From an uncultured delta proteobacterium (lineage in GTDB: Bacteria > Desulfobacterota > Desulfobacteria > Desulfobacterales > JAFDCJ01), in the NCBI GenBank assembly GCA_963769935.1, contig CAVYNY010000010.1, positions 32,001 through 96,000 on the forward strand: a stretch of 64,000 nucleotides of DNA, given 5' to 3'. Position numbers and translations under genes: made by a program. Below are positions 20,925 through 30,684 of the stretch, in pieces. The stretch's first letter is position 1; each line of letters starts with the position of its first letter. The notes under the pieces are model-generated. The model was not told the DNA's origin, searched no databases, and was given only the letters and a program-made list of their open reading frames with translations.

Positions 20925-21473
20925 CTACCGGCCCAGCAATCCATGGACTCGGCCATTCAGACTGCTGTTGGGTATGGCCTTCAGCACATTGCCGATCGAA
21001 ACGAAACACTGCCTGACAATTGCCGTTTTGGGCCGTGATGATTCCAGCTGGGCACCAATGGTTTTCAAATCAGCCATCAATTCGGCCAGGGGATCAAAGC
21101 CCAGCCCCAGAGTGCCGACTTGATCTTTGATTTCTGTGACAATTTGCTCAACCGCCTGCCGCGCGGCCGAATTCAAAAGCGGTTCCTCACCCAGCTTGGT
21201 TGACTTGCCGGCATCGGAAGCCAAAGGACCGATCAGGTCCTGAACCAGCTCCGATCCGGCGGCGCTGATTCCGATCCCGCCGGAGAGAGTTCGGATTTCC
21301 ACCAGCTGCGAGCCGATCAACTTTTCGGCTACCCTGGCAGCGGCATCCCGCTCCAGGCCCATCAGCCCGCCGATGTCATACATGGACACCTGCACCGAGG
21401 AATCGCCGCGGGTCTTTTCAAACAATTGGATTAAAAACTGCTTGCCGGTTTCATCAACTTCAGGATCCGTCAT
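20925..21473 (-). CDS. Hypothetical protein (start reassigned to MTDPEV; N-terminal winged-helix-like region)
   Basis: AAGG RBS; sits in the operon between citrate synthase and xth; good coding composition. Confidence 0.7.
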   Translation of the reverse strand: MTDPEVDETGKQFLIQLFEKTRGDSSVQVSMYDIGGLMGLERDAAARVAEKLIGSQLVEIRTLSGGIGISAAGSELVQDLIGPLASDAGKSTKLGEEPLLNSAARQAVEQIVTEIKDQVGTLGLGFDPLAELMADLKTIGAQLESSRPKTAIVRQCFVSIGNVLKAIPNSSLNGRVHGLLGR

Positions 21474-21474
21474 A

Positions 21475-22659
21475 TTACCTTTCTTCCAACGGTGTATATT
21501 CGCATACCGCCGGACCGCAATAGTCCCCGACGTACTCGGATTCAGGTCGGTAGAGCATCGGTTTGGGAGCGGCACCTGCAAATTGTTCCTCGATGATGTG
21601 GGCGCACCAGCCTGCTATCCGGGCAACGGCAAATACCGGGGTGAATAAATCCACGGGAAACCCCATGGCGTAATACAAGGAGCCGCTGTAAAAATCGACA
21701 TTGACGTATATATCCTTCCCCTTGCGTTTTTTAAATTCTTCTTTGCCGGTTTTTTCAAGCAGCGTGGCGATATCGTACCACCTGGTCTCTCCGGTTCTTT
21801 CGGCCATGGCCTTGATCATCTCTTCCAGAATGGGTGCGCGGGGATCGTCGGTATCGTAAACGGCATGTCCCAGGCCAAAAATCACCCGGCCGGCATCAAA
21901 TTCCTGATTGACATAATCATGTACCTTGTCGGCTGAGCCGATTTTAAAAAGCATTTCCATGACCCGCGCATTGGCACCGCCATGCAGGTCACCGGACAGT
22001 GAGCCCACCGCGGCGGCAACTGCGGCATACATGTGGGCTCTGGTGGAGGCAACTTCGCGGGCGGCAAAGGTGGAAGCATTGAAGGAGTGCTCGGCGTGGC
22101 AGACAAGCGCGACGTCCAGAAAACGGGCCACCTGCTTATCGGGAATCTCCCCGGTGAGCATGTATAAAAAATTGGCCGCGTGATCCAGATCGGGTAATGG
22201 CGGGACCGGTTTTTTGTTATTGCGGATTCGGTGCCAGACGGCGATGATCGCCGAAAATTTGGCAATCAGTTTGGTGGCCATGCGCCATGCCGCATCCATG
22301 GTTTGATCTCGGTTGAGGACATCCTCATCATGCTGCGCCAGCATGGGTACCACCGACTGCAAAATGTCCATGGGCAAAGCATTTTTGGGCATGGTGTGCA
22401 TGGCAGCAATCACCTCGTCCGGCAGCCCCTGCTGGGCCCGGATCCGGTGCCGGAACTCTTCTAGTTCGGCTTTGTCGGGCAATTTTTCGTAAAGCAGCAA
22501 ATGGGCGGTTTCTTCAAATGAAGCCCGTTTTGCCAAATCCTGGATTAAATACCCCCTGTAAATTAACCGTCCGTTGGCACCATCAACATCGCATATGCGC
22601 GACTGTGCAATGACAAAGCCTCGCAGGCCCGTATTCAAGATGGGTTTGCATGCTTCCAT
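21475..22659 (-). CDS. gltA: Citrate (or 2-methylcitrate) synthase
   Basis: GRLIYRGY, HAEHSFNAST, GDLHGGAN, FGLGHAVY..DPR, NVDFYSG, RIAGWCAH; GAGGTG RBS. Confidence 0.88.
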   Translation of the reverse strand: MEACKPILNTGLRGFVIAQSRICDVDGANGRLIYRGYLIQDLAKRASFEETAHLLLYEKLPDKAELEEFRHRIRAQQGLPDEVIAAMHTMPKNALPMDILQSVVPMLAQHDEDVLNRDQTMDAAWRMATKLIAKFSAIIAVWHRIRNNKKPVPPLPDLDHAANFLYMLTGEIPDKQVARFLDVALVCHAEHSFNASTFAAREVASTRAHMYAAVAAAVGSLSGDLHGGANARVMEMLFKIGSADKVHDYVNQEFDAGRVIFGLGHAVYDTDDPRAPILEEMIKAMAERTGETRWYDIATLLEKTGKEEFKKRKGKDIYVNVDFYSGSLYYAMGFPVDLFTPVFAVARIAGWCAHIIEEQFAGAAPKPMLYRPESEYVGDYCGPAVCEYTPLEER

Positions 22660-22781
22660 ATTCTCACCTCTCATGTTGTTCTCAGTTCGTTGCGGTCTTT
22701 CAATCTGGATGATTAAAAGGATTTAAAAAGGCCTATTCTAATAATGTATTAATGTGAGTTGTGGGAAAAAAGTCAAGCAAA

Positions 22782-23114
22782 TTAAAAAATCATTTTCTCA
22801 GGCGGCCGGCGTTCGGGAACATACTCGTGTGGTATTCGGCCGTCGTTCCATTCCTGCGAAACATAAAGATTGCAATAGCAGCTGCCGTATTCTTCAATAT
22901 CGGGTATGCTGTAAACGCAAGGGCAGATGATGTCCCGGTCGGCTGCGCGGTCCCCGGAAACCAGGCGGCACGGGCAGCCCATGTATCCATAACGCTCTTT
23001 GTTGACCAGCAGTGCCTCCAACAGCTCAAAGGTCCCCTGCTTGTCCTTGTTGAAATAATAACCTTTGGGTTCCTGAACCTTTTTCATTCTTTCGTAAAGC
23101 GCTTGTGCATCCAT
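22782..23114 (-). CDS. Ferredoxin:thioredoxin reductase catalytic-subunit-like protein
   Basis: CPCR, ICPC and CYC motifs of the FTR beta chain; coupled to the glutaredoxin stop. Confidence 0.9.
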   Translation of the reverse strand: MDAQALYERMKKVQEPKGYYFNKDKQGTFELLEALLVNKERYGYMGCPCRLVSGDRAADRDIICPCVYSIPDIEEYGSCYCNLYVSQEWNDGRIPHEYVPERRPPEKMIF

Positions 23115-23368
23115 CACATTCCCAATGCCTCCTTGATTTCTTTTTCCTTGAATCCGACGATAACCTTATCACCGATAATGATGGTGGGAAAGGAGCAGCG
23201 CGGATTAAATTTTTTGACATCCTCGATAATTGCTTTTCTTTCATCGCCCTTTAGCAGATCCACGTCGATAAATTCGTACTTGATGGTGCAGTCGCTCAGA
23301 TATTTTTTGGTCGCCCTGCAATGGCTGCACGTACTCAGAGAAAATACTTTTACCTCAGGATTAGACAT
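23114..23368 (-). CDS. Glutaredoxin (NrdH-like)
   Basis: CSHC active site, SFPTIIIG, GF motif; 84 aa. Confidence 0.9.
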   Translation of the reverse strand: MSNPEVKVFSLSTCSHCRATKKYLSDCTIKYEFIDVDLLKGDERKAIIEDVKKFNPRCSFPTIIIGDKVIVGFKEKEIKEALGM

Positions 23369-23884
23369 TGAATCTTCCTTTCAAAGTTGGAATGCCGACC
23401 CAGTTTCAGAAGCCGGCTCTAAGGCCGCCGGAAATGATACCTGATGATAATTTGAATTTAGATAATCAATTAAGATAGTAAGATAGCAAAAAATCCGGTA
23501 CATTAACACAGAAAATTTAAAATTAAATATCCAAAACCGGCATGCGTATCCAATCAAATTTTATACCAGGGAAATGATTAAATATACAAGTTATTAGATT
23601 ATTATGATATTAATAGGTTAATTCGATAATATCGGAAAACAATCTCATTATTCAATACAATGAGACAGATGAGACGCTGAAAAGGCCGGTTCATAGATAA
23701 AGAAATCAAAAACATTTAAATTGGCCTCGGACTGGCTTCAAAGTCAGTATCTCAAAAACAGATATTCTGGTGCCGGAAACCGATCAGTACATAACCGTCT
23801 ATTATTGTTATATTTTTTTGGCAACCGAAATTTTATGGTCGAATCTGAATTAAAGGTTCTTTCAATTTAAACAAAAGAGCTGAA

Positions 23885-23923
23885 GTCTCAAGTTTTTATG
23901 ATGCATACATGTATCACAAGACA
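23885..23923. promoter_or_regulatory. Putative enhancer (bEBP) site upstream of cooS1
   Basis: GTCTCA-N19-TGTATCACAAGACA; a near-identical motif lies upstream of cooS2; about 140 bp before the sigma54 promoter. Confidence 0.65.
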
Positions 23924-24062
23924 GTTGCCGAAATGTTTACTAAACACCGAAAGTATGCTATCAAATCGCAGTTCTTTGGCCGCCTCCTGAATTTGGTTAA
24001 TTTCTAAATAGTTACGCAAAGAGCGATTTAAATGCCGCATGTATTTAATTTTCTCTTGCATC

Positions 24063-24078
24063 TGGCATGGAATTGGCA
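24063..24078 (+). promoter_or_regulatory. Sigma54 -24/-12 promoter of cooS1
   Basis: TGGCATGGAATTGGCA versus consensus TGGCACG-N4-TTGCW (GG-N10-GC conserved). Confidence 0.7.
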
Positions 24079-24276
24079 GATAAAATTCGAGAACCTTGTA
24101 ATTGGTTAAATGTTTCTATCACGAGGGCCAACTCGTGGCAGCATAAGTTTGAGTGATATTCGTTTCTGGTAATTTATCCCATTTTAACTTTCAAACTGAA
24201 TTTTCATAATCACATCTAAGGTGGAAGTCCAGCCAGGTTATTTGAATTTCAATAAATCCAAAAAGGGAGGCCACTA

Positions 24277-26250
24277 ATGGAAGAGAAAAAAGTCATCTCC
24301 AAAACAAAGGAGATCGATATTAAAGATTTGACAATCTGCGAGGCCACCGCTCAAATGCTGGCCAAGGCCAGACGAGACGGCGTCGAAACCGCTTTTGACC
24401 GGGCAATTAATATGAAGGCTTGTCCCATCGGGGCGGATTCAGCCTGCTGCAAACATTGCGCCATGGGGCCCTGCCGGCTCAATGCCAAGGATCCTTACGG
24501 CAAAGTCGGGGTATGCGGGGCCACCATCGATACGATCATGGCGCGCAACTTCGCCCGCATGGTGGCCAGCGGCGCTGCCGCTCACACTGACCACGGCATG
24601 AGCATGCTGGATTTGTTCCGCGAAGTGGTAAACGGCAAGATCAAGGATTACCGGATCAAGGATACGATAAAGCTCGAGAAAGTTGCCACAGAAATCGGCA
24701 TTGAGACCGACGGCCGGGAAATCAAAGACATCGCCATGGATCTATATAAGGAGCTTGAGCGCACCTATACCCAGGTTGAAGGCGAAATACCGTTTACCAA
24801 GCGAGTTCCGGCAAAGACCCTTGAAACCTGGCGCAAACTTGGGATCGTGCCCCGGGGTGCCATGCGCGAAATCATGGAACTCATGCATCGAACCCACATG
24901 GGTGTCGACCAGCATTATGAAAATATCACCAAACAATGCAGCCGCACGGCCCTGGCCGACGGCTGGGGCGGTTCCATGGTGGCTACCGAAATTTCAGACA
25001 TCCTCTTCGGAACGCCGACACCGGTCGCAGCCGAGGTAAACATGGGAGTTCTGAAAGAAGATGCGGTCAATATCATTGTCCACGGACATGAGCCCAACCT
25101 GTTCGAGTCTATTCTGGAATCTGTAAATGAGCCGACCCTGGTGCGAGCTGCGAAAGATGCCGGGGCTTCCGGCATAAACCTGGTGGGCATGTGCTGCTCC
25201 GGAGCCGAGATGCTTTCCCGTCACGGAATTCCCCACGCCGGAAATTTCATGTCCACCGAAGCCGTGCTGGTTACCGGTGCCGTTGATGCCATGGCAGTTG
25301 ATGTTCAATGCATTAAACAGGGACTTGCCAAAGTCGCCGAATGTTACAATACGGTTCTGCTGACCACAAACCCCAGATGCCATATTGAAGGTGCGGAACA
25401 CATCGAGCTGCATGAACATGATCCCAAAAGCTGCACCGACGAAATCGTTATCAAGGCTATCGGTCGGTTTAAAAACAGATCGCTGCCCATCGAAATCCCC
25501 AAAATCAAAAACACCGGCATCCACGGGTTTTCGCACGAATATATCAATTATATGCTCGGTGGTACATTCAGAGCTTCGTATACCCCGCTGAATGACAACA
25601 TTATCAATGGACGCATCCGCGGCGTGGCTGGAGTCGTGGGTTGCACCAACCCGAGGGTAAAGCAGGACTACGTGCATGTTGAACTGGTCAAGGAACTGAT
25701 CAAAAACGACGTTCTGGTCCTTCAAACAGGTTGCTCGCAAATATCGCTTGCCAAAGCAGGCCTGCTGACCCCGGAAGCCGCCCATTTGGCCGGTGCCGGT
25801 CTGAAGGAGGTCTGCGAAACTGTCGGCATGCCGCCTGTCCTGGGCGTGGGGTCCTGCGTCGACAATAGCCGCATCCTGATTGCGGCTTCCGAAATGGTTC
25901 GCGTTGGCGGGCTCGGAAACAGTATCGCAGATCTCCCGGCGGCCGGAGCTGCCCCGGAATGGATGAGCGAAAAAGCCATCAGTATCGGTCATTATTTCGT
26001 CGCATCCGGCGTATATACGGTATTCGGAGTAACCTTCCCCATCGTGGAAGAGACCAAATTCCACAAACTTCTCTTTGGAGGGCTGGAAAAACAGGGTCTT
26101 GGAAAATGGGGATTTGCACCGGATCCGATTGAAATGGCCCACCTGATGATCGCCCATATTGATAAGAAACGCAAAGAATTGGGCATCGACAAGGCCAGAG
26201 AACGCACCCTTGTTGATATGGCTGATCGGCGGGCAATGGAAGCAGCGTAG
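24277..26250 (+). CDS. cooS: Ni,Fe carbon monoxide dehydrogenase catalytic subunit, copy 1
   Basis: D/B cluster C-X7-CC-X2-C-X4-C...GVCGA, AAHTDH, HGHEP, MCCSG, DVQC, GCTN, TGCS, GSCVDNSR, EWMSEKA. Confidence 0.96.
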   Translation: MEEKKVISKTKEIDIKDLTICEATAQMLAKARRDGVETAFDRAINMKACPIGADSACCKHCAMGPCRLNAKDPYGKVGVCGATIDTIMARNFARMVASGAAAHTDHGMSMLDLFREVVNGKIKDYRIKDTIKLEKVATEIGIETDGREIKDIAMDLYKELERTYTQVEGEIPFTKRVPAKTLETWRKLGIVPRGAMREIMELMHRTHMGVDQHYENITKQCSRTALADGWGGSMVATEISDILFGTPTPVAAEVNMGVLKEDAVNIIVHGHEPNLFESILESVNEPTLVRAAKDAGASGINLVGMCCSGAEMLSRHGIPHAGNFMSTEAVLVTGAVDAMAVDVQCIKQGLAKVAECYNTVLLTTNPRCHIEGAEHIELHEHDPKSCTDEIVIKAIGRFKNRSLPIEIPKIKNTGIHGFSHEYINYMLGGTFRASYTPLNDNIINGRIRGVAGVVGCTNPRVKQDYVHVELVKELIKNDVLVLQTGCSQISLAKAGLLTPEAAHLAGAGLKEVCETVGMPPVLGVGSCVDNSRILIAASEMVRVGGLGNSIADLPAAGAAPEWMSEKAISIGHYFVASGVYTVFGVTFPIVEETKFHKLLFGGLEKQGLGKWGFAPDPIEMAHLMIAHIDKKRKELGIDKARERTLVDMADRRAMEAA

Positions 26251-26269
26251 TGTCAGCCCACTCCATCGC

Positions 26270-26299
26270 AGGATGGCGTCTCAACCCGGACGCCATCCT
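26270..26299 (+). terminator. Hairpin after cooS1
   Basis: AGGATGGCGTC-tcaacccg-GACGCCATCCT, 11-bp stem followed by a short T run. Confidence 0.65.
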
Positions 26300-26426
26300 T
26301 TGCTGGGCTAAAAAATTTTAAATCAGACCAAAATCCTTTTTTATGATGTTACCCGGACTTGCACTTTGGGGCTCGTCGGCAGCCGGTTTTCAATCTTCCT
26401 CTTTTTTGCGCCATGTCCTGCCATTT

Positions 26427-26466
26427 GTCTCATCATCGATTTAGCACGAACCTGTATCATAAGACA
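26427..26466. promoter_or_regulatory. Putative enhancer (bEBP) site upstream of cooS2
   Basis: GTCTCA-N20-TGTATCATAAGACA (imperfect palindrome); about 144 bp before the sigma54-like promoter. Confidence 0.65.
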
Positions 26467-26609
26467 AACCGCGGATGGCTTTGCATCCTGAACGCTCGTT
26501 TCTTTCCCCCTACTATTTTTCCCATAAAATAAAATTTTATATGTTATTTTAATTGTTTAGCTATTATATCCAGGTTATATTCATACTTATTTAGTATATA
26601 TCAATAAAC

Positions 26610-26625
26610 TGGCATGAAAATTGTT
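26610..26625 (+). promoter_or_regulatory. Sigma54-like promoter of cooS2
   Basis: TGGCATGAAAATTGTT (-24 GG intact, -12 GT variant), with an AT-rich tract upstream. Confidence 0.6.
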
Positions 26626-26660
26626 ATATAATTTATAAATTCAACAAAGGGAGGCCACTA

Positions 26661-28634
26661 ATGGAAGAGAAAAAAGTCATCTCCAAAACAAAGGAGATCG
26701 ATATTAAAGATTTGACAATCTGCGAGGCCACCGCTCAAATGCTGGCCAAGGCCAGACGAGACGGCGTCGAAACCGCTTTTGACCGGGCAATTAATATGAA
26801 GGCTTGTCCCATCGGGGCGGATTCAGCCTGCTGCAAACATTGCGCCATGGGGCCCTGCCGGCTCAATGCCAAGGATCCTTACGGCAAAGTCGGGGTATGC
26901 GGGGCCACCATCGATACGATCATGGCGCGCAACTTCGCCCGCATGGTGGCCGCCGGCAGTGCCGCCCATACGGACCACGGCATGGGCATGCTCGACCTTT
27001 TCCGGGAGGTGCTGAACGGCAACATCCAGGATTACGGCATTAAAGACCCGCTCAAACTCATAGAGGTGGCCAAATCAATCGATATCGAGACGGACGGCCG
27101 GGAAATCAAAGACATCGCCATGGATCTATACAAGGAGCTTGAGCGCACCTACACCCAGGTGGAAGGAGAAATTCCCTTTGCGAAACGGGTGCCGCAAAAA
27201 ACACTGGAGACCTGGCGCAAGCAGGGAATCGTTCCCCGGGGAGCCATGCGCGAAATCATGGAGTTGATGCATCGCACGCATATGGGCGTGGACCAGCATT
27301 ATGAAAATATCACCAAGCAGTGCAGCCGCACCGCGCTGGCCGACGGCTGGGGCGGTTCCATGGTGGCTACGGAAATTTCCGACATTTTGTTCGGCACCCC
27401 ATCGCCGGTAGCGGTCGAGGTGAACATGGGCGTGCTAAAAGAAGACCAGGTCAATATCATCATTCACGGCCATGAACCCAATTTATTTGAATCCATAGTT
27501 GAATCGGTCAATGAACCCACCCTGATTCAGGCCGCCAAAGATGCCGGTGCCAAGGGGATCAACCTGGTAGGGATGTGCTGCTCAGGACTGGAAATGTTTG
27601 TCCGTCACGGAATACCTCACGCCGGCAACTTTATGTCCACCGAAGCCGTACTGGTCACCGGGGCCGTGGACGCCATGGGCGTTGATGTGCAGTGCATTAA
27701 ACAGGGCCTGGTTAAAGTTGCGGACTGTTATGAAACGCCGCTGATTACGACCAACCCGCGCTGCCGCATCGAAGGCGCCCTTCACATTGAATTTCACGAG
27801 CACGATCCCAAGGCCTGCACGGATGAAATCGTCATTCAGGCCATCGGTCGCTTCAAAAACCGCAGGCTGCCCATCGAAATTCCGCAAATCGTCAACACCG
27901 GCGTGCACGGGTTTTCCCACGAGTATATCAATTATATGCTCGGCGGAACTTTCCGGGCCTCCTATACGCCCCTTAACGACAATATTATCAATGGCCGCAT
28001 TCGCGGGGTGGCGGGTGTCGTCGGCTGCACCAATCCCCGGATAAAGCAGGATTGGGTGCATGTGGAACTGGTTAAAGAGCTGATTAAAAACGACGTGCTG
28101 GTGGTACAGACCGGCTGCTCTCAAATCGCACTGGCCAAAGCCGGACTGACGACTCCGGAAGCCGCTCATCTGGCCGGCCCGGGATTAAAAGAAGTCTGCG
28201 AAACTGTGGGTATGCCGCCGGTCCTGGGCTGCGGCGCCTGTGTCGACAACAGCCGGATTCTGATTGCCTGCGCTGAAATGGTCAAAACAGGCGGTCTGGG
28301 AGAAAGCATCGCCGATCTGCCGGTGGCCGGCTGTGCACCGGAGTACATGAGTGAAAAAGCGATCTGCATCGGACAGTATTTTGTGGCTTCGGGTGTCTAC
28401 ACGGTATTCGGTGTTACCTTTCCCATCGTGGAAGGAACCAAATTCTACAAACACCTGTTCGAAGAGCTGGAACAAAAGGGTATGGGAAAATGGGGCTTTG
28501 CCACCGATCCGTATGAAATTGCAGCGATGATGATCGCCCATATCGATAAAAAACGCAAGCAGCTTGGGATCGACAAGACCCGCGAGCGGACACTGGTGGA
28601 TATGGCTGACCGTCGGGCAATGGATGCGGCCTAA
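26661..28634 (+). CDS. cooS: Ni,Fe carbon monoxide dehydrogenase catalytic subunit, copy 2
   Basis: Same cluster ligands as copy 1 (GACVDNSR, EYMSEKA); same length, 657 aa; about 88% identical by hand count. Confidence 0.96.
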   Translation: MEEKKVISKTKEIDIKDLTICEATAQMLAKARRDGVETAFDRAINMKACPIGADSACCKHCAMGPCRLNAKDPYGKVGVCGATIDTIMARNFARMVAAGSAAHTDHGMGMLDLFREVLNGNIQDYGIKDPLKLIEVAKSIDIETDGREIKDIAMDLYKELERTYTQVEGEIPFAKRVPQKTLETWRKQGIVPRGAMREIMELMHRTHMGVDQHYENITKQCSRTALADGWGGSMVATEISDILFGTPSPVAVEVNMGVLKEDQVNIIIHGHEPNLFESIVESVNEPTLIQAAKDAGAKGINLVGMCCSGLEMFVRHGIPHAGNFMSTEAVLVTGAVDAMGVDVQCIKQGLVKVADCYETPLITTNPRCRIEGALHIEFHEHDPKACTDEIVIQAIGRFKNRRLPIEIPQIVNTGVHGFSHEYINYMLGGTFRASYTPLNDNIINGRIRGVAGVVGCTNPRIKQDWVHVELVKELIKNDVLVVQTGCSQIALAKAGLTTPEAAHLAGPGLKEVCETVGMPPVLGCGACVDNSRILIACAEMVKTGGLGESIADLPVAGCAPEYMSEKAICIGQYFVASGVYTVFGVTFPIVEGTKFYKHLFEELEQKGMGKWGFATDPYEIAAMMIAHIDKKRKQLGIDKTRERTLVDMADRRAMDAA

Positions 28635-28667
28635 TCAATCCGACAGACCGCAACAGTCAAAAACAAT

Positions 28668-28709
28668 AAAAACAAAAGGGGCTTCCCAACGGGAGCCCCT
28701 TTTGTTTTT
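28668..28709. terminator. Bidirectional intrinsic terminator
   Basis: AAAAACAAAAGGGGCT-tcccaacggg-AGCCCCTTTTGTTTTT between convergent genes. Confidence 0.85.
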
Positions 28710-28821
28710 GATCTTGGAACGCGAATGCGGCGGTCTTGCTTCTGTTTCAATGCCAGGAGGCGGCCGGCTGGAACCCAAAAATCAATGGGGCCTGAAGCCC
28801 AAACCTCTCAACCCTTACGAT

Positions 28822-29175
28822 TCATCTTTCCACGCCCAATTCACGTTTTAACCAAGCTTTTACATCGTCTTCAAGGGCATACACCCCTTTCAGCTCGCAG
28901 ACCTCCTTTTCATACTGCTGCGGCAGTTCAAATTGTGCCAGTTCAACCGCTTCTTCTGAATTGCGTCGGATCAGGTAAATAAAATAGGGTTTGTGCCAGC
29001 AGTTGACCACAAAATAGGTAGAATAATCGCTTTTCGAACGTATGGTATACTTCCCGCTGCCCCAATCCGTGTTGCCCCATTCCAGATAGAGTTTGACCGC
29101 TTGCTCAGGTCCCAGATCCCAGCTGATCTCATTGATCAGGTCGGTTTCTTTTTTTAATTCTTCCAGCGACAGCAT
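28822..29175 (-). CDS. DVU0772-family protein
   Basis: WDLGPEQAVKLYLEWGN, RSKSD...YFVV, LIRRNSE motifs, recognised from memory of the family; AGGAGG RBS. Confidence 0.75.
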   Translation of the reverse strand: MLSLEELKKETDLINEISWDLGPEQAVKLYLEWGNTDWGSGKYTIRSKSDYSTYFVVNCWHKPYFIYLIRRNSEEAVELAQFELPQQYEKEVCELKGVYALEDDVKAWLKRELGVER

Positions 29176-29217
29176 TTAGACCTCCTTTAATAGCAACCAA
29201 TCCTTTAAAACACAAAG

Positions 29218-29246
29218 AATGTAAGGATGTGTAGGACGGGTGTCAA
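29218..29246 (-). promoter_or_regulatory. Sigma70-type promoter for the DVU0772-like gene
   Basis: TTGACA-N17-TACATT on the minus strand. Confidence 0.7.
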
Positions 29247-29298
29247 ACAGCTGCAGGGAAGGTCCGGTATGGTACTTGCAACCTGGAAATATAAGCGG

Positions 29299-30684
29299 TT
29301 AGGACAGCTTAGCGACTTGATACAGTTCGGGGTGATCCCCTAAAAATCGATAAAGGGTTGCCCGCCCGACGCCGAGCAGCTTGGCGGCTTTGGCCTTGTT
29401 GCCGCCGGTCCTGATCAAGGCCGAGCGTACACCTTCTAAATTTAGTTTGCGGGTGGGCCCTCGGCGGATGCATGTATTTTCAATTTCCCGCAGCTCAATC
29501 GGCAAATCTTCTGCTTCAATGGTGTCGCCGCTGCATTTGACAAAGGCAAACTGGATAGCGTTCTGCAATTCACGGACATTGCCCGGCCAATGGTAGTCCA
29601 ATATTAGTGACAGGGCCGGAGCGGAGACTCTGACAGGATCACGTTTGTAGCGTTCACTGGCTTCCTGCAGAAAGTGTTCGATCAGCAGCGGTATGTCCAT
29701 CTTGCGTTCACGCAAAGGCGGCATATGAATCGGAATGACATTTAGCCTGTAATAGAGGTCTTCGCGAAATCGCCCCTGTTTCACGGCCTCCTTAAGATTT
29801 TTGTTTGAGGCGCTGATGACCCGCACATCAACCGAAATTGTCCGCTCACCGCCGACCCGTTCAAATTTGCTTTCCTGCAGGCAACGCAAAATTTTGGCCT
29901 GCATATTGTTGGAGAGTTCGGCCACTTCATCGAGAAATACCGTTCCGCCATCGGCAAGCTCGAAACGGCCTTTTTTGTCGCGTATGGCGCCTGAAAATGC
30001 GCCTTTCACATGACCGAAAAGCTCGCTTTCGATAAGACCTTCCGGCAGCGCGCCGCAGTTGATGGGAACAAAAGCGGCGCCGTTGCGCGAACTTTCATTA
30101 TGGATGGCATTGGCAACCAGTTCTTTGCCGGTCCCGGTTTCACCGGATATATAAACGGGATAATCATAGCTCGAAACATCGCGTATATGTTTGAAAATTT
30201 TATACATTTTATGGTCCTGGCCGATAATGTTGCCGAAACTGGTCAGTTTACCGGCCTGCAGCTTCAGACTGAAAAGATCGGTAACATCCCGGAAGGAGGC
30301 CAGGACTCCGACAAATTCACCGCTGTCATCCCGCATGCTGGTGATGGTCATTTCCACCCGGCGCGATTCACCGCTTTTAGTTGTGATGCTCAGGGAATGC
30401 TCGGAAGTTTCAGCCAGATCCGGCACGTCGTCACAAAACTTGCAGCGGCCACCGCAAAAAGGATGACCGAAAGCCTCATGGCATTCCTTGCCCAGAACAT
30501 CTCCCCGGCTGTAACCGGAAATACGCTCGGCTTCCTGGTTGAAGAAAAAGATGCGTCGATTCATGTCATGGGCGATTATCCCTTCTTTGAGATTGTCCAG
30601 CACATGCTCCAGGTTATCCTGGTGACACATTAAATTTTCAAGGGAAAGATCCGACATCATTTTCTTTCGATAAATTCTGCTCAT
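29299..30684 (-). CDS. Sigma54-dependent activator with a Cys-rich PAS domain (PAS-AAA+-HTH)
   Basis: PAS with CHEAFGHPFCGGRCKFC, GETGTGKE, ESELFGHVKGAFSGA, WPGNVREL, Fis-type HTH NKAKAAKLLGVGRATLYR. Confidence 0.93.
   Translation of the reverse strand: MSRIYRKKMMSDLSLENLMCHQDNLEHVLDNLKEGIIAHDMNRRIFFFNQEAERISGYSRGDVLGKECHEAFGHPFCGGRCKFCDDVPDLAETSEHSLSITTKSGESRRVEMTITSMRDDSGEFVGVLASFRDVTDLFSLKLQAGKLTSFGNIIGQDHKMYKIFKHIRDVSSYDYPVYISGETGTGKELVANAIHNESSRNGAAFVPINCGALPEGLIESELFGHVKGAFSGAIRDKKGRFELADGGTVFLDEVAELSNNMQAKILRCLQESKFERVGGERTISVDVRVISASNKNLKEAVKQGRFREDLYYRLNVIPIHMPPLRERKMDIPLLIEHFLQEASERYKRDPVRVSAPALSLILDYHWPGNVRELQNAIQFAFVKCSGDTIEAEDLPIELREIENTCIRRGPTRKLNLEGVRSALIRTGGNKAKAAKLLGVGRATLYRFLGDHPELYQVAKLS

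Follow-up and report, generated by a model that had tools for sequence, protein, structure and literature searches.

The cooS pair and its upstream regions

We analysed 64,000 nucleotides from an uncultured delta proteobacterium of the order Desulfobacterales (assembly GCA_963769935.1, contig CAVYNY010000010.1, positions 32,001 to 96,000), referred to as the window and numbered from its first letter. Two adjacent genes for apparently stand-alone nickel carbon monoxide dehydrogenases (Ni-CODHs), cooS1 and cooS2, are each preceded here by a common motif, a predicted enhancer, and by a sigma54-type promoter, and a gene for a sigma54 activator converges on them. The features on which the argument turns are:

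23885..23923, plus strand: predicted enhancer 1, GTCTCA-N8-TGATGCA-N4-TGTATCACAAGACA, matrix score 29.8, the highest in the genome
24062..24078, plus strand: predicted sigma54 -24/-12 promoter of cooS1, GG-N10-GC, with a predicted start near 24089
24277..26250, plus strand: cooS1, apparently stand-alone Ni-CODH of 657 amino acids, above the TIGR01702 cut-off and with C-cluster ligand motifs
26427..26466, plus strand: predicted enhancer 2, with a degenerate middle half-site, matrix score 16.4
26609..26625, plus strand: predicted sigma54 promoter of cooS2, GG-N10-GT, with a predicted start near 26636
26661..28634, plus strand: cooS2, 657 amino acids, 88% identical to cooS1
29299..30684, minus strand: PAS-AAA+-HTH sigma54 activator, with C68-X8-C77-X3-C81-X2-C84, a GAFSGA loop and the helix LGVGRATLYR

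The cooS1 product scored 585.7 bits against TIGR01702 (cut-off 478). Both copies carry the C-cluster ligands (His269, Cys306-307, 345, 456, 486, 527 and the Lys motif), and the D- and B-cluster cysteines are visible in the translation. The nearest solved structures are entries 6t7j and 6b6v/6vwy, which we take to be clade E enzymes. Neither an acs gene nor cooF was found among the open reading frames (ORFs) beside the pair; a third CODH (58%), lying directly behind another long ORF on contig C16, is probably the ACS-linked copy. The two cooS genes are identical over 15 upstream and the first 291 coding bases (24262-24567 and 26646-26951) and 69-88% identical per 100 bases past that stretch, and the identical start regions suggest recent gene conversion or an assembly merge.

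The initial annotation had claimed that one motif lies upstream of both cooS genes, and a search of the window with GTCTCA-N19/20-TGTATCAYAAGACA returned exactly these two matches (23885-23923 and 26427-26466), compared to 0 of 100 shuffled windows. No further exact match was present in the 7.99-Mb, 41-contig assembly. TGGCATG begins 140 and 144 bases past the last motif base (at 24063 and 26610), as had been stated, and the upstream regions are otherwise unrelated, in that blastn found no similarity between them beyond the motif and some 40 bases ahead of the ATG. What had been read as an N19/20 spacer, however, holds a further conserved half-site (TGAKACA) that had been overlooked. Alignment of relatives' sites gave the full element as GTCTCA-N8-10-TGAKACA-N4-TGTMTCAYRAKACA, built of three to four half-sites of the form TGTMTCA/TGAKACA; the TGAKACA half-site is one base off at cooS1 and decayed at cooS2 (4/7 mismatches).

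A matrix was built from 113 sites, with the genome's own loci excluded but with the window's own motif as seed. In this genome five of its hits exceeded 15, compared to none for the reversed matrix. The hits include the cooS1 site at 29.8 (17.3 in the reverse reading), C13:619740 at 22.8, the cooS2 site at 16.4 and a C35 site at 15.5 that has no promoter. Sigma54-type promoters were indeed present before both cooS genes. The cooS2 -12 base departs from consensus (GT), a departure shared by relatives L125, L127 and L129, and the enhancer-promoter spacing of cooS1 recurs in 13 other cooS regions. The spacers of cooS1 and cooS2 are 63-71% A+T, and neither contains an IHF consensus at 1 mismatch.

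The enhancer and its promoters across the order

To place the motif in a wider setting, 301 genomes drawn from the order were surveyed. The motif's 14-mer, followed 95-145 bases on by TGGCA, occurred in 21 of them (control, 0), and the 25-bp core with at most 2 mismatches occurred in 132 genomes at 249 sites, compared to 10 hits for the reversed pattern. From 150 listed of these 249 sites, 148 rows (about 142 distinct) were analysed. Of the 148 enhancers, 102 had within 260 bp, on either side, a sigma54 site with a score of 11 or more on our own scale, whereas only 93 of 1500 random positions drawn from contig C10 had one. Orientation-independent action at 100-220 bp would amount to enhancer-like behaviour. 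The proposal that the motif is a sigma54-dependent operator is thus supported by the paired promoters, a result read from sequence, and by the same token the motif is a conserved, predicted sigma54 enhancer.

The -12 element was observed to track enhancer orientation (L120-L292). Promoters on one side of the enhancer are mostly of the TTGC type (TGC in 35 of 54), and those on the opposite side mostly carry a non-canonical TTGA (46 of 64). Common ancestry of the rbr promoter could account for the difference, as could an activation that truly depends on the side.

Targets of the enhancer

Targets were taken as the first or second gene behind enhancer and promoter and counted as distinct loci among the sampled sites. 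The commonest was a gene of 67-87 amino acids with no Pfam match that lies ahead of rubrerythrin or desulfoferrodoxin (30 loci), followed by rubrerythrin (27), the DVU0772 family (21), cooS (11) and desulfoferrodoxin (9). Two ferritin-like groups (5 and 6), citrate synthase and flavodoxin (4 each), glutaredoxin and a thiol-peroxidase-like gene (3 each), rubredoxin and a cydA-like gene (2 each) and many single cases made up the remainder. The labels rubrerythrin, desulfoferrodoxin, flavodoxin, rubredoxin, glutaredoxin, citrate synthase and DVU0772 are matches to genes of this genome that were scanned for families; tpx, cydA, nifU, sufC and nqrA are our presumed assignments, made by recognition of the sequence.

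In this genome the second-best site (C13, 22.8), which the seed pattern missed, faces a sigma54-type promoter and a cluster of genes for the small protein, rubrerythrin, desulfoferrodoxin, ferritin, flavodoxin, FMN reductase, rubredoxin and a flavodiiron protein. The small gene (C13:620060-620260, equal to L412:5061-5261) encodes 67 amino acids with a GCGILYGVLRDSAYK-like core and no Pfam match. Taken together, the C13 cluster and a target list rich in rubrerythrin and desulfoferrodoxin point to a regulon of oxygen and iron-redox defence of which CODH is one member. The initial annotation had envisaged a regulon dedicated to CODH. That view was not supported, since cooS came first at only 11 of the sampled loci, compared to 30 for the small gene and 21 for DVU0772, and since most orthologous cooS genes use a sigma70-type promoter and a PerR/Fur-type box instead (see below).

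Among the recurring targets, citrate synthase is also a repeated neighbour of a PerR/Fur-family gene (21475-22674 in the window; L010, L136, L193, L195, L211). Single targets resembling a SufC-type ATPase, NqrA and NifU (L117, L118, L136, L240) lie behind the 14-mer or the full motif and hint at links to iron-sulfur (Fe-S) assembly.

The remaining features of the locus include two that the initial annotation had overlooked: a glutaredoxin-FTR-citrate synthase (grx-ftr-cs) run, divergent from cooS1 and with its own sigma54-type site, and a DVU0772-family gene between cooS2 and the activator.

21475..22674, minus strand: citrate synthase (type II), last gene of the grx-ftr-cs run
22782..23117, minus strand: ferredoxin:thioredoxin reductase (FTR) catalytic chain, PF02943
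23114..23368, minus strand: glutaredoxin-like protein of 84 amino acids, PF00462
23553..23569, minus strand: predicted sigma54 promoter of grx-ftr-cs, with a predicted start at about 23543, of the TGGTAT-N5-TTGA type that relatives L125 and L129 also have
23642..23676, no strand: cluster of three TGAGAC-type half-sites, seen in the sequence
28670..28709, no strand: hairpin with flanking A and T runs between convergent genes, seen in the sequence
28822..29175, minus strand: DVU0772-family gene, NF045682
29189..29246, minus strand: putative sigma70-type promoter (TTGACA-17-TACATT) with a PerR-type box (2 mismatches), before the DVU0772-family gene

The half-site cluster, to which the matrix scan gave no score, is a possible extra enhancer for the grx promoter, and the hairpin at 28670..28709 is likely a two-way terminator. 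A 218-amino-acid ORF on the minus strand (20925-21581) overlaps the citrate synthase end, and its true start is probably internal (MTDPEV...).

The activator

As the initial annotation had indicated, a PAS-AAA+-HTH gene ends 664 bp past cooS2; that it is convergent with cooS2 had been passed over. Its product, which probably starts at the ATG at 30657, has a PAS domain, Sigma54_activat (PF00158, E 2e-70) and HTH_8 (PF02954). By its domains (AAA+ with a GAFTGA-type loop, Fis-type HTH) the protein is a sigma54 bacterial enhancer-binding protein, and its GAFSGA loop is the majority form of the family (58 of 87 homologues). The C-X8-C-X3-C-X2-C arrangement of PAS cysteines was confirmed as Cys68, 77, 81 and 84. 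The three-Cys motif is kept in 85 of the 87 close homologues and the fourth Cys in 69. The recognition helix GVGRATLYR is nearly invariant among the same 87, and the activator is the sole carrier of GVGRATLYRF among the 21,939 ORFs of this genome.

An AlphaFold model of the activator shows a PAS fold (pLDDT 79.5) with a cysteine loop at pLDDT 50-70. Foldseek matched this PAS model to generic PAS/LOV domains at 16-23% identity, and phmmer returned one weak match (9wex_A, E 3e-4). With the loop poorly modelled and the matches generic, the structure says nothing about a cofactor.

Close homologues occur in the named strains Desulfospira joergensenii (L012) and Desulfobacter curvatus (L015), the latter with a matrix site. 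A sister clade (L007:9875-11407, L010:12-1445) has the same DNA-binding helix and is likewise convergent to cooS, with a different, cysteine-rich input domain (C-X9-C-X5-C-X2-C), which suggests a sensor swap on one operator. Other family members carry an extra N-terminal ArsC/LMW-PTP-like domain (L024:3466-5211, L028:731-2509). Two more C-X8-C-X3-C PAS activators are present in this genome (C11:483610-485349, L082, and C11:131845-133191, L081); one of them has two PAS domains, and neither carries the activator's helix.

To ask whether this activator reads the enhancer, the occurrence of the two was compared. The activator had a match at E<=1e-120 in 195 of the 301 genomes, and the enhancer was present in 108 of these 195 compared to 24 of the other 106, counts in which kin are not independent. 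A strong match to the activator's DNA-binding end was found in 6 of the 24 genomes with the motif alone and in 0 of 30 double negatives. Positions of both were listed for 57 genomes; in 24 of these a site and the activator were at most 30 kb apart, in 9 at most 1 kb (roughly calculated expectation, about 1.4). Co-occurrence and proximity support the earlier proposal that the adjacent activator reads the operator and make it the likely cognate, as far as such genomic comparisons indicate.

Among the 82 genomes for which the top-listed cooS and activator positions were both available, the two genes were convergent within 1.6 kb in 50; in the others they lay within 15 kb (2), farther apart on the same contig (4) or on different contigs (26). 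The closest activator homologues (L001-L004, L027) lie beside mobB and mostly DVU0772, with no cooS in view.

Control of orthologous cooS genes

The survey of cooS covered 112 distinct upstream regions of the closest orthologues, taken from about 150 listed and a few others, with regions under 450 bases excluded and cooS2 merged with cooS1. Carried over to these orthologues, the link between motif and cooS held in part: enhancer plus sigma54 promoter was found in 14 of the 112, and the other 98 were without it. The 14 are spread over five families (f1, f28, f30, f65, f67), and 11 of them were sampled because they were motif-positive, so that their true share is smaller than 14 of 112 suggests. 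In 69 of the 112 regions, compared to 60 of 2240 shuffles, there was a box no more than 2 mismatches away from AwnAGnAAtngTTnCTnwT, the PerR consensus of Desulfovibrio (PMC545781). The box alone occurred in 62 regions, enhancer plus sigma54 promoter alone in 7, both in 7 and neither in 36. TTGACA is nearly always present in the box-only regions, and 6 of the 7 regions with both signals have it as well. Some boxes are equally near the Fur consensus of PMC545781 table 11, and PerR or Fur as reader both fit. With the enhancer at some cooS genes and a PerR/Fur-type box at most, this CODH appears to be under redox- or iron-type control by two systems.

No PerR-type box within 2 mismatches precedes cooS1 or cooS2 of this genome. 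Relatives of groups g1, f28 and f65 have a Fur-family gene some 3 kb upstream of cooS. Its counterpart was not found here (best match 32%; assembly 96.7% complete), and among the near-complete assemblies of these groups only this genome is without it, which suggests loss or an assembly gap. We considered whether the activator replaced PerR in the enhancer-cooS lineages and rejected the idea, since most g1, f28 and f65 genomes keep the Fur-family gene (62-67% identity to that of L010).

RNA contigs

RNA evidence came from the contigs of four libraries of one sediment study, which derive from a relative about 96-98% identical and from which starts and strands are not derivable. They cover DVU0772 and, in 4/4 runs, grx-ftr-cs, cooS1, cooS2 and the activator, and individual contigs reach from cs to grx or from DVU0772 to the activator. 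The interval 23470-23979 had RNA contig cover in 0/3 runs and is mostly covered by DNA run X1; such a lack of RNA cover proves nothing. Position 24148, a candidate RNA start in contigs of runs X6, X7 and X9, was rejected because it lies exactly 30 bases before a variant at 24178 and is likely a branch of the assembly graph.

In the cooS1 leader there is a small hairpin, CACGAG-N6-CTCGTG (24120-24137), and in a close relative's RNA contig two of its stem bases are changed to G-U-compatible pairs. A weak sigma70-like element read by eye below the scan threshold, TTTACT-17-TATCAA with a TG before it (23937-23965), could explain an RNA contig that reaches 23987 and is weighed below.

Interpretation and alternative explanations

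Both cooS genes likely share a redox-controlled regulon with oxygen-defence genes, rather than answering carbon monoxide (CO), judging by their shared regulatory sites. In the mechanism that we propose, activator dimers would bind the TGTMTCA/TGAKACA half-sites about 140 bp upstream, and the PAS cysteines would hold a [4Fe-4S] cluster by analogy with OrpR of Desulfovibrio. Oxidation of the cluster would release the AAA+ domain, which would then open the sigma54 promoters of the rbr-dfx-ftn-fld-rubredoxin-flavodiiron cluster, of grx-ftr-cs and of cooS. CODH might in this way either be resupplied after oxidative damage or serve as a source of low-potential electrons for the detoxifying enzymes. 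That the regulon is switched on under oxidising stress, the reverse of OrpR, is drawn only from what the targets do. With this direction included we judge the reading to stand at about even chances; without the direction clause, Fe-S redox sensing by the activator through the enhancer, with both CODHs among the defence targets, is in our view probable.

Several observations weigh against this reading. The site was not seen at 2 mismatches in 87 of the 195 activator genomes, and 18 of the 24 motif-positive genomes lacked the activator by either query. Because the matrix was seeded from the window's motif, there is some circularity in the first place of the cooS1 site, and the low score of the cooS2 site marks that enhancer as weak. 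One RNA contig of the close relative (X6) runs through the predicted cooS1 promoter to 23987, upstream of 24089, so that a start at 24089 alone is not enough and a second promoter or DNA carry-over is possible. An acidic residue two after the first Cys, proposed as a ligand in OrpR, varies in the activator family. OrpR, the sole tested protein with the motif, is off when oxidised (PMC8359166). Rubrerythrin transcription in most sulfate reducers did not differ between oxic and anoxic phases (PMC11451228, in part), and the predicted PerR operons of Desulfovibrio vulgaris were reported down under oxygen (PMC545781, in part); overall, the published rubrerythrin data for sulfate reducers, in the portions available, do not favour simple oxygen induction (PMC11451228, PMC545781, PMC2702500).

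The same activator and operator may instead work with OrpR polarity, the reduced, cluster-bound form being on, which we regard as possible though unlikely. Rubrerythrin, desulfoferrodoxin, ferritin, rubredoxin, FTR and CODH would then be iron-rich proteins made constantly when iron and reductant are plentiful, and the PerR/Fur-type repressor would be a separate peroxide or iron input. OrpR itself works at low potential (PMC8359166), iron proteins, with ferritin among them, make up most of the targets, and the two inputs at the 7 of 112 cooS regions with both signals make more sense if their conditions differ. The sediment RNA contigs over cooS1, cooS2, grx-ftr-cs and the activator in all four runs would also be consistent with it. 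Glutaredoxin, thiol-peroxidase-like and cydA-like targets, however, fit defence better than iron sufficiency, the activator falls in a separate clade from OrpR and has a fourth Cys, and PexR provides a precedent for an oxidant-activated sigma54 activator of antioxidant genes (PMC12754779, in part). A departure of another kind, that the enhancer is bound by another of the genome's roughly 60 sigma54 activators and the neighbour is a relic of synteny, we hold to be improbable. It would account for the closest homologues' having mobB and mostly DVU0772, not cooS, as neighbours, and for cooS genes without the enhancer in most genomes with an adjacent activator; in D. vulgaris only one of two activators adjoining a promoter bound it (PMC4641369, in part). 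Set against this are the 9 of 57 genomes with the motif within 1 kb of the activator and a helix that is almost invariant in the family and unique in the genome, together with an activator presence that tracks the motif.

It might also be that only cooS1 is under the enhancer and that the copy before cooS2 has been decaying since the tandem duplication as a mere relic, cooS2 being read from elsewhere or weakly; its decayed middle half-site, low matrix score and GT at -12 would fit. The 14-mer, first half-site, spacing and -24 box have nevertheless been kept while the remaining region became unalignable, GT also stands at -12 in relatives with a single cooS, and no RNA contig was seen bridging 26410-26743 (a weak point), so that we give this explanation little credence. 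Least of all do we expect a regulon dedicated to CODH, possibly CO-responsive through a PAS metal centre. The adjacency of activator and cooS in 50 of 82 genomes and the enhancer at both copies here speak for it, but cooS heads only 11 sampled loci, the enhancer-promoter pair is missing from 98 of 112 cooS regions, and the same motif heads rubrerythrin and desulfoferrodoxin operons.

Returning to the defence regulon switched on by cluster oxidation, a bolder form of it may be put forward tentatively and with more doubt than belief: in Desulfobacterales an undescribed Fe-S sigma54 activator of polarity reverse to OrpR would be the master switch of oxygen defence, and a widespread stand-alone CODH would have been recruited to it twice, by PerR-type repressor and by activator, so that electrons from CO reach peroxide and superoxide reductases. 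For most stand-alone Ni-CODHs no function is known, and their part in oxygen defence has been a matter of speculation from one operon since 2005 (PMC1287953, in part). Here two independent regulatory signatures connect defence genes with a CODH that is very common in an order abundant in sediment. The type of Fe-S PAS sensor is already known from OrpR; new are an operator shared by cooS and the rbr-dfx cluster of one genome and a PerR-type box as the commoner alternative at cooS. If the reading is true, an OrpR-type Fe-S PAS module has been reused with a new helix and new targets. For testing, the operator and the promoter positions are now defined, as is a predicted sensor with four cysteines.

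Comparison with known systems

In OrpR (DVU2106) of Desulfovibrio vulgaris Hildenborough, C52/C61/C65 of the PAS domain bind a [4Fe-4S] cluster; the protein is on at low potential, is switched off by a rise of about 140 mV and binds DNA in both states (PMC8359166). Like OrpR, our protein is a PAS-AAA+-HTH sigma54 activator with C-X8-C-X3-C at the same place in the PAS domain (PMC8359166), and OrpR sites, like the sites here, lie upstream of sigma54 promoters, in OrpR's case at 90-130 bp (PMC8359166; PMC3897727, in part). It is 39% identical to L406, an OrpR-like protein whose locus has OrpR sites. Unlike OrpR, it has GAFSGA instead of GAFTDA, the helix GVGRATLYR instead of GVSKDTLRR and a fourth Cys at +3, and its predicted operator is TGTMTCA/TGAKACA instead of GGGCGYRTTTTGCGCCC, which has 0 matches at 1 mismatch in this genome. 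OrpR serves the orp genes in two flanking operons, whereas the targets here are defence genes and cooS at several loci. No orp operons flank the activator, whose neighbours are cooS, DVU0772 and mobB.

A quick IQ-TREE tree of 77 rows (30 random and a few chosen of 96 close homologues, 37 distant ones and 3 paralogues, DVU2106 itself not included) placed the activator in a 45-row GRATLYR clade (SH-aLRT 99) that excludes L406 and L081. The last two, L406 lying between OrpR sites and L081 from this genome, group together (SH-aLRT 97). By tree position the activator is a paralogue, not an orthologue, of OrpR, and OrpR polarity therefore cannot simply be carried over. The OrpR-type cysteine spacing to which the initial annotation had pointed stood; clade, helix and operator speak against an orthology. 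L081 was tried as the OrpR orthologue of this genome. Although the tree joins it to the OrpR-like protein, its surroundings, inspected by eye, showed no orp operon, and it was left as OrpR-like.

Among CO regulators, RcoM has a PAS-LytTR architecture and CooA binds heme; the PAS-AAA+-HTH_8 architecture of the activator fits neither. The 21 cNMP-domain matches in this genome may or may not include CooA. In the CooA-controlled cooSC of Desulfovibrio a regulator lies beside a stand-alone cooS, as here (PMC545781 table 10, in part). CooA, however, is of the CRP/FNR type with the site TGTCGGCnnGCCGACA, whereas the neighbour here is a sigma54 activator with a different motif.

PexR of Myxococcus xanthus is likewise a sigma54 activator; it serves antioxidant genes and has palindromic upstream sites in tandem, but it differs in its GAF Zn/Fe sensor, its operator CACCG-n6-CGGTG, its targets ahpC and katB and its aerobic host (excerpts of PMC12754779). 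No GAF family hit was found in the activator, and the enhancer motif differs from PexR sites. The computationally predicted PerR regulon of Desulfovibrio overlaps in its targets (rubrerythrin, rubredoxin-like); PerR, however, is a Fur-family repressor at sigma70 promoters, and cooS is not in the published list, as far as the available portion of PMC545781 extends.

Full-text literature outside subscription journals and RegPrecise gave no account of the operator, the activator, the PerR box or sigma54 redox control at cooS. The available portions of bioRxiv 10.1101/2025.09.14.676152 and PMC6344411 name no sigma54 activator beside CODH, although their supplements could list such neighbours, and the main text of PMC4641369, in the part available, has no GAGAC/GTCTC string, its motifs being in figures. 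Also among the closest precedents is the CODH-IV operon of Carboxydothermus hydrogenoformans, in which CODH was proposed, as speculation, to feed electrons to rubrerythrin in oxidative stress (PMC1287953, in part). In that case the link is one operon (cooS-cooF-oxidoreductase-rbr), whereas here it consists of shared regulatory sites at separate loci.

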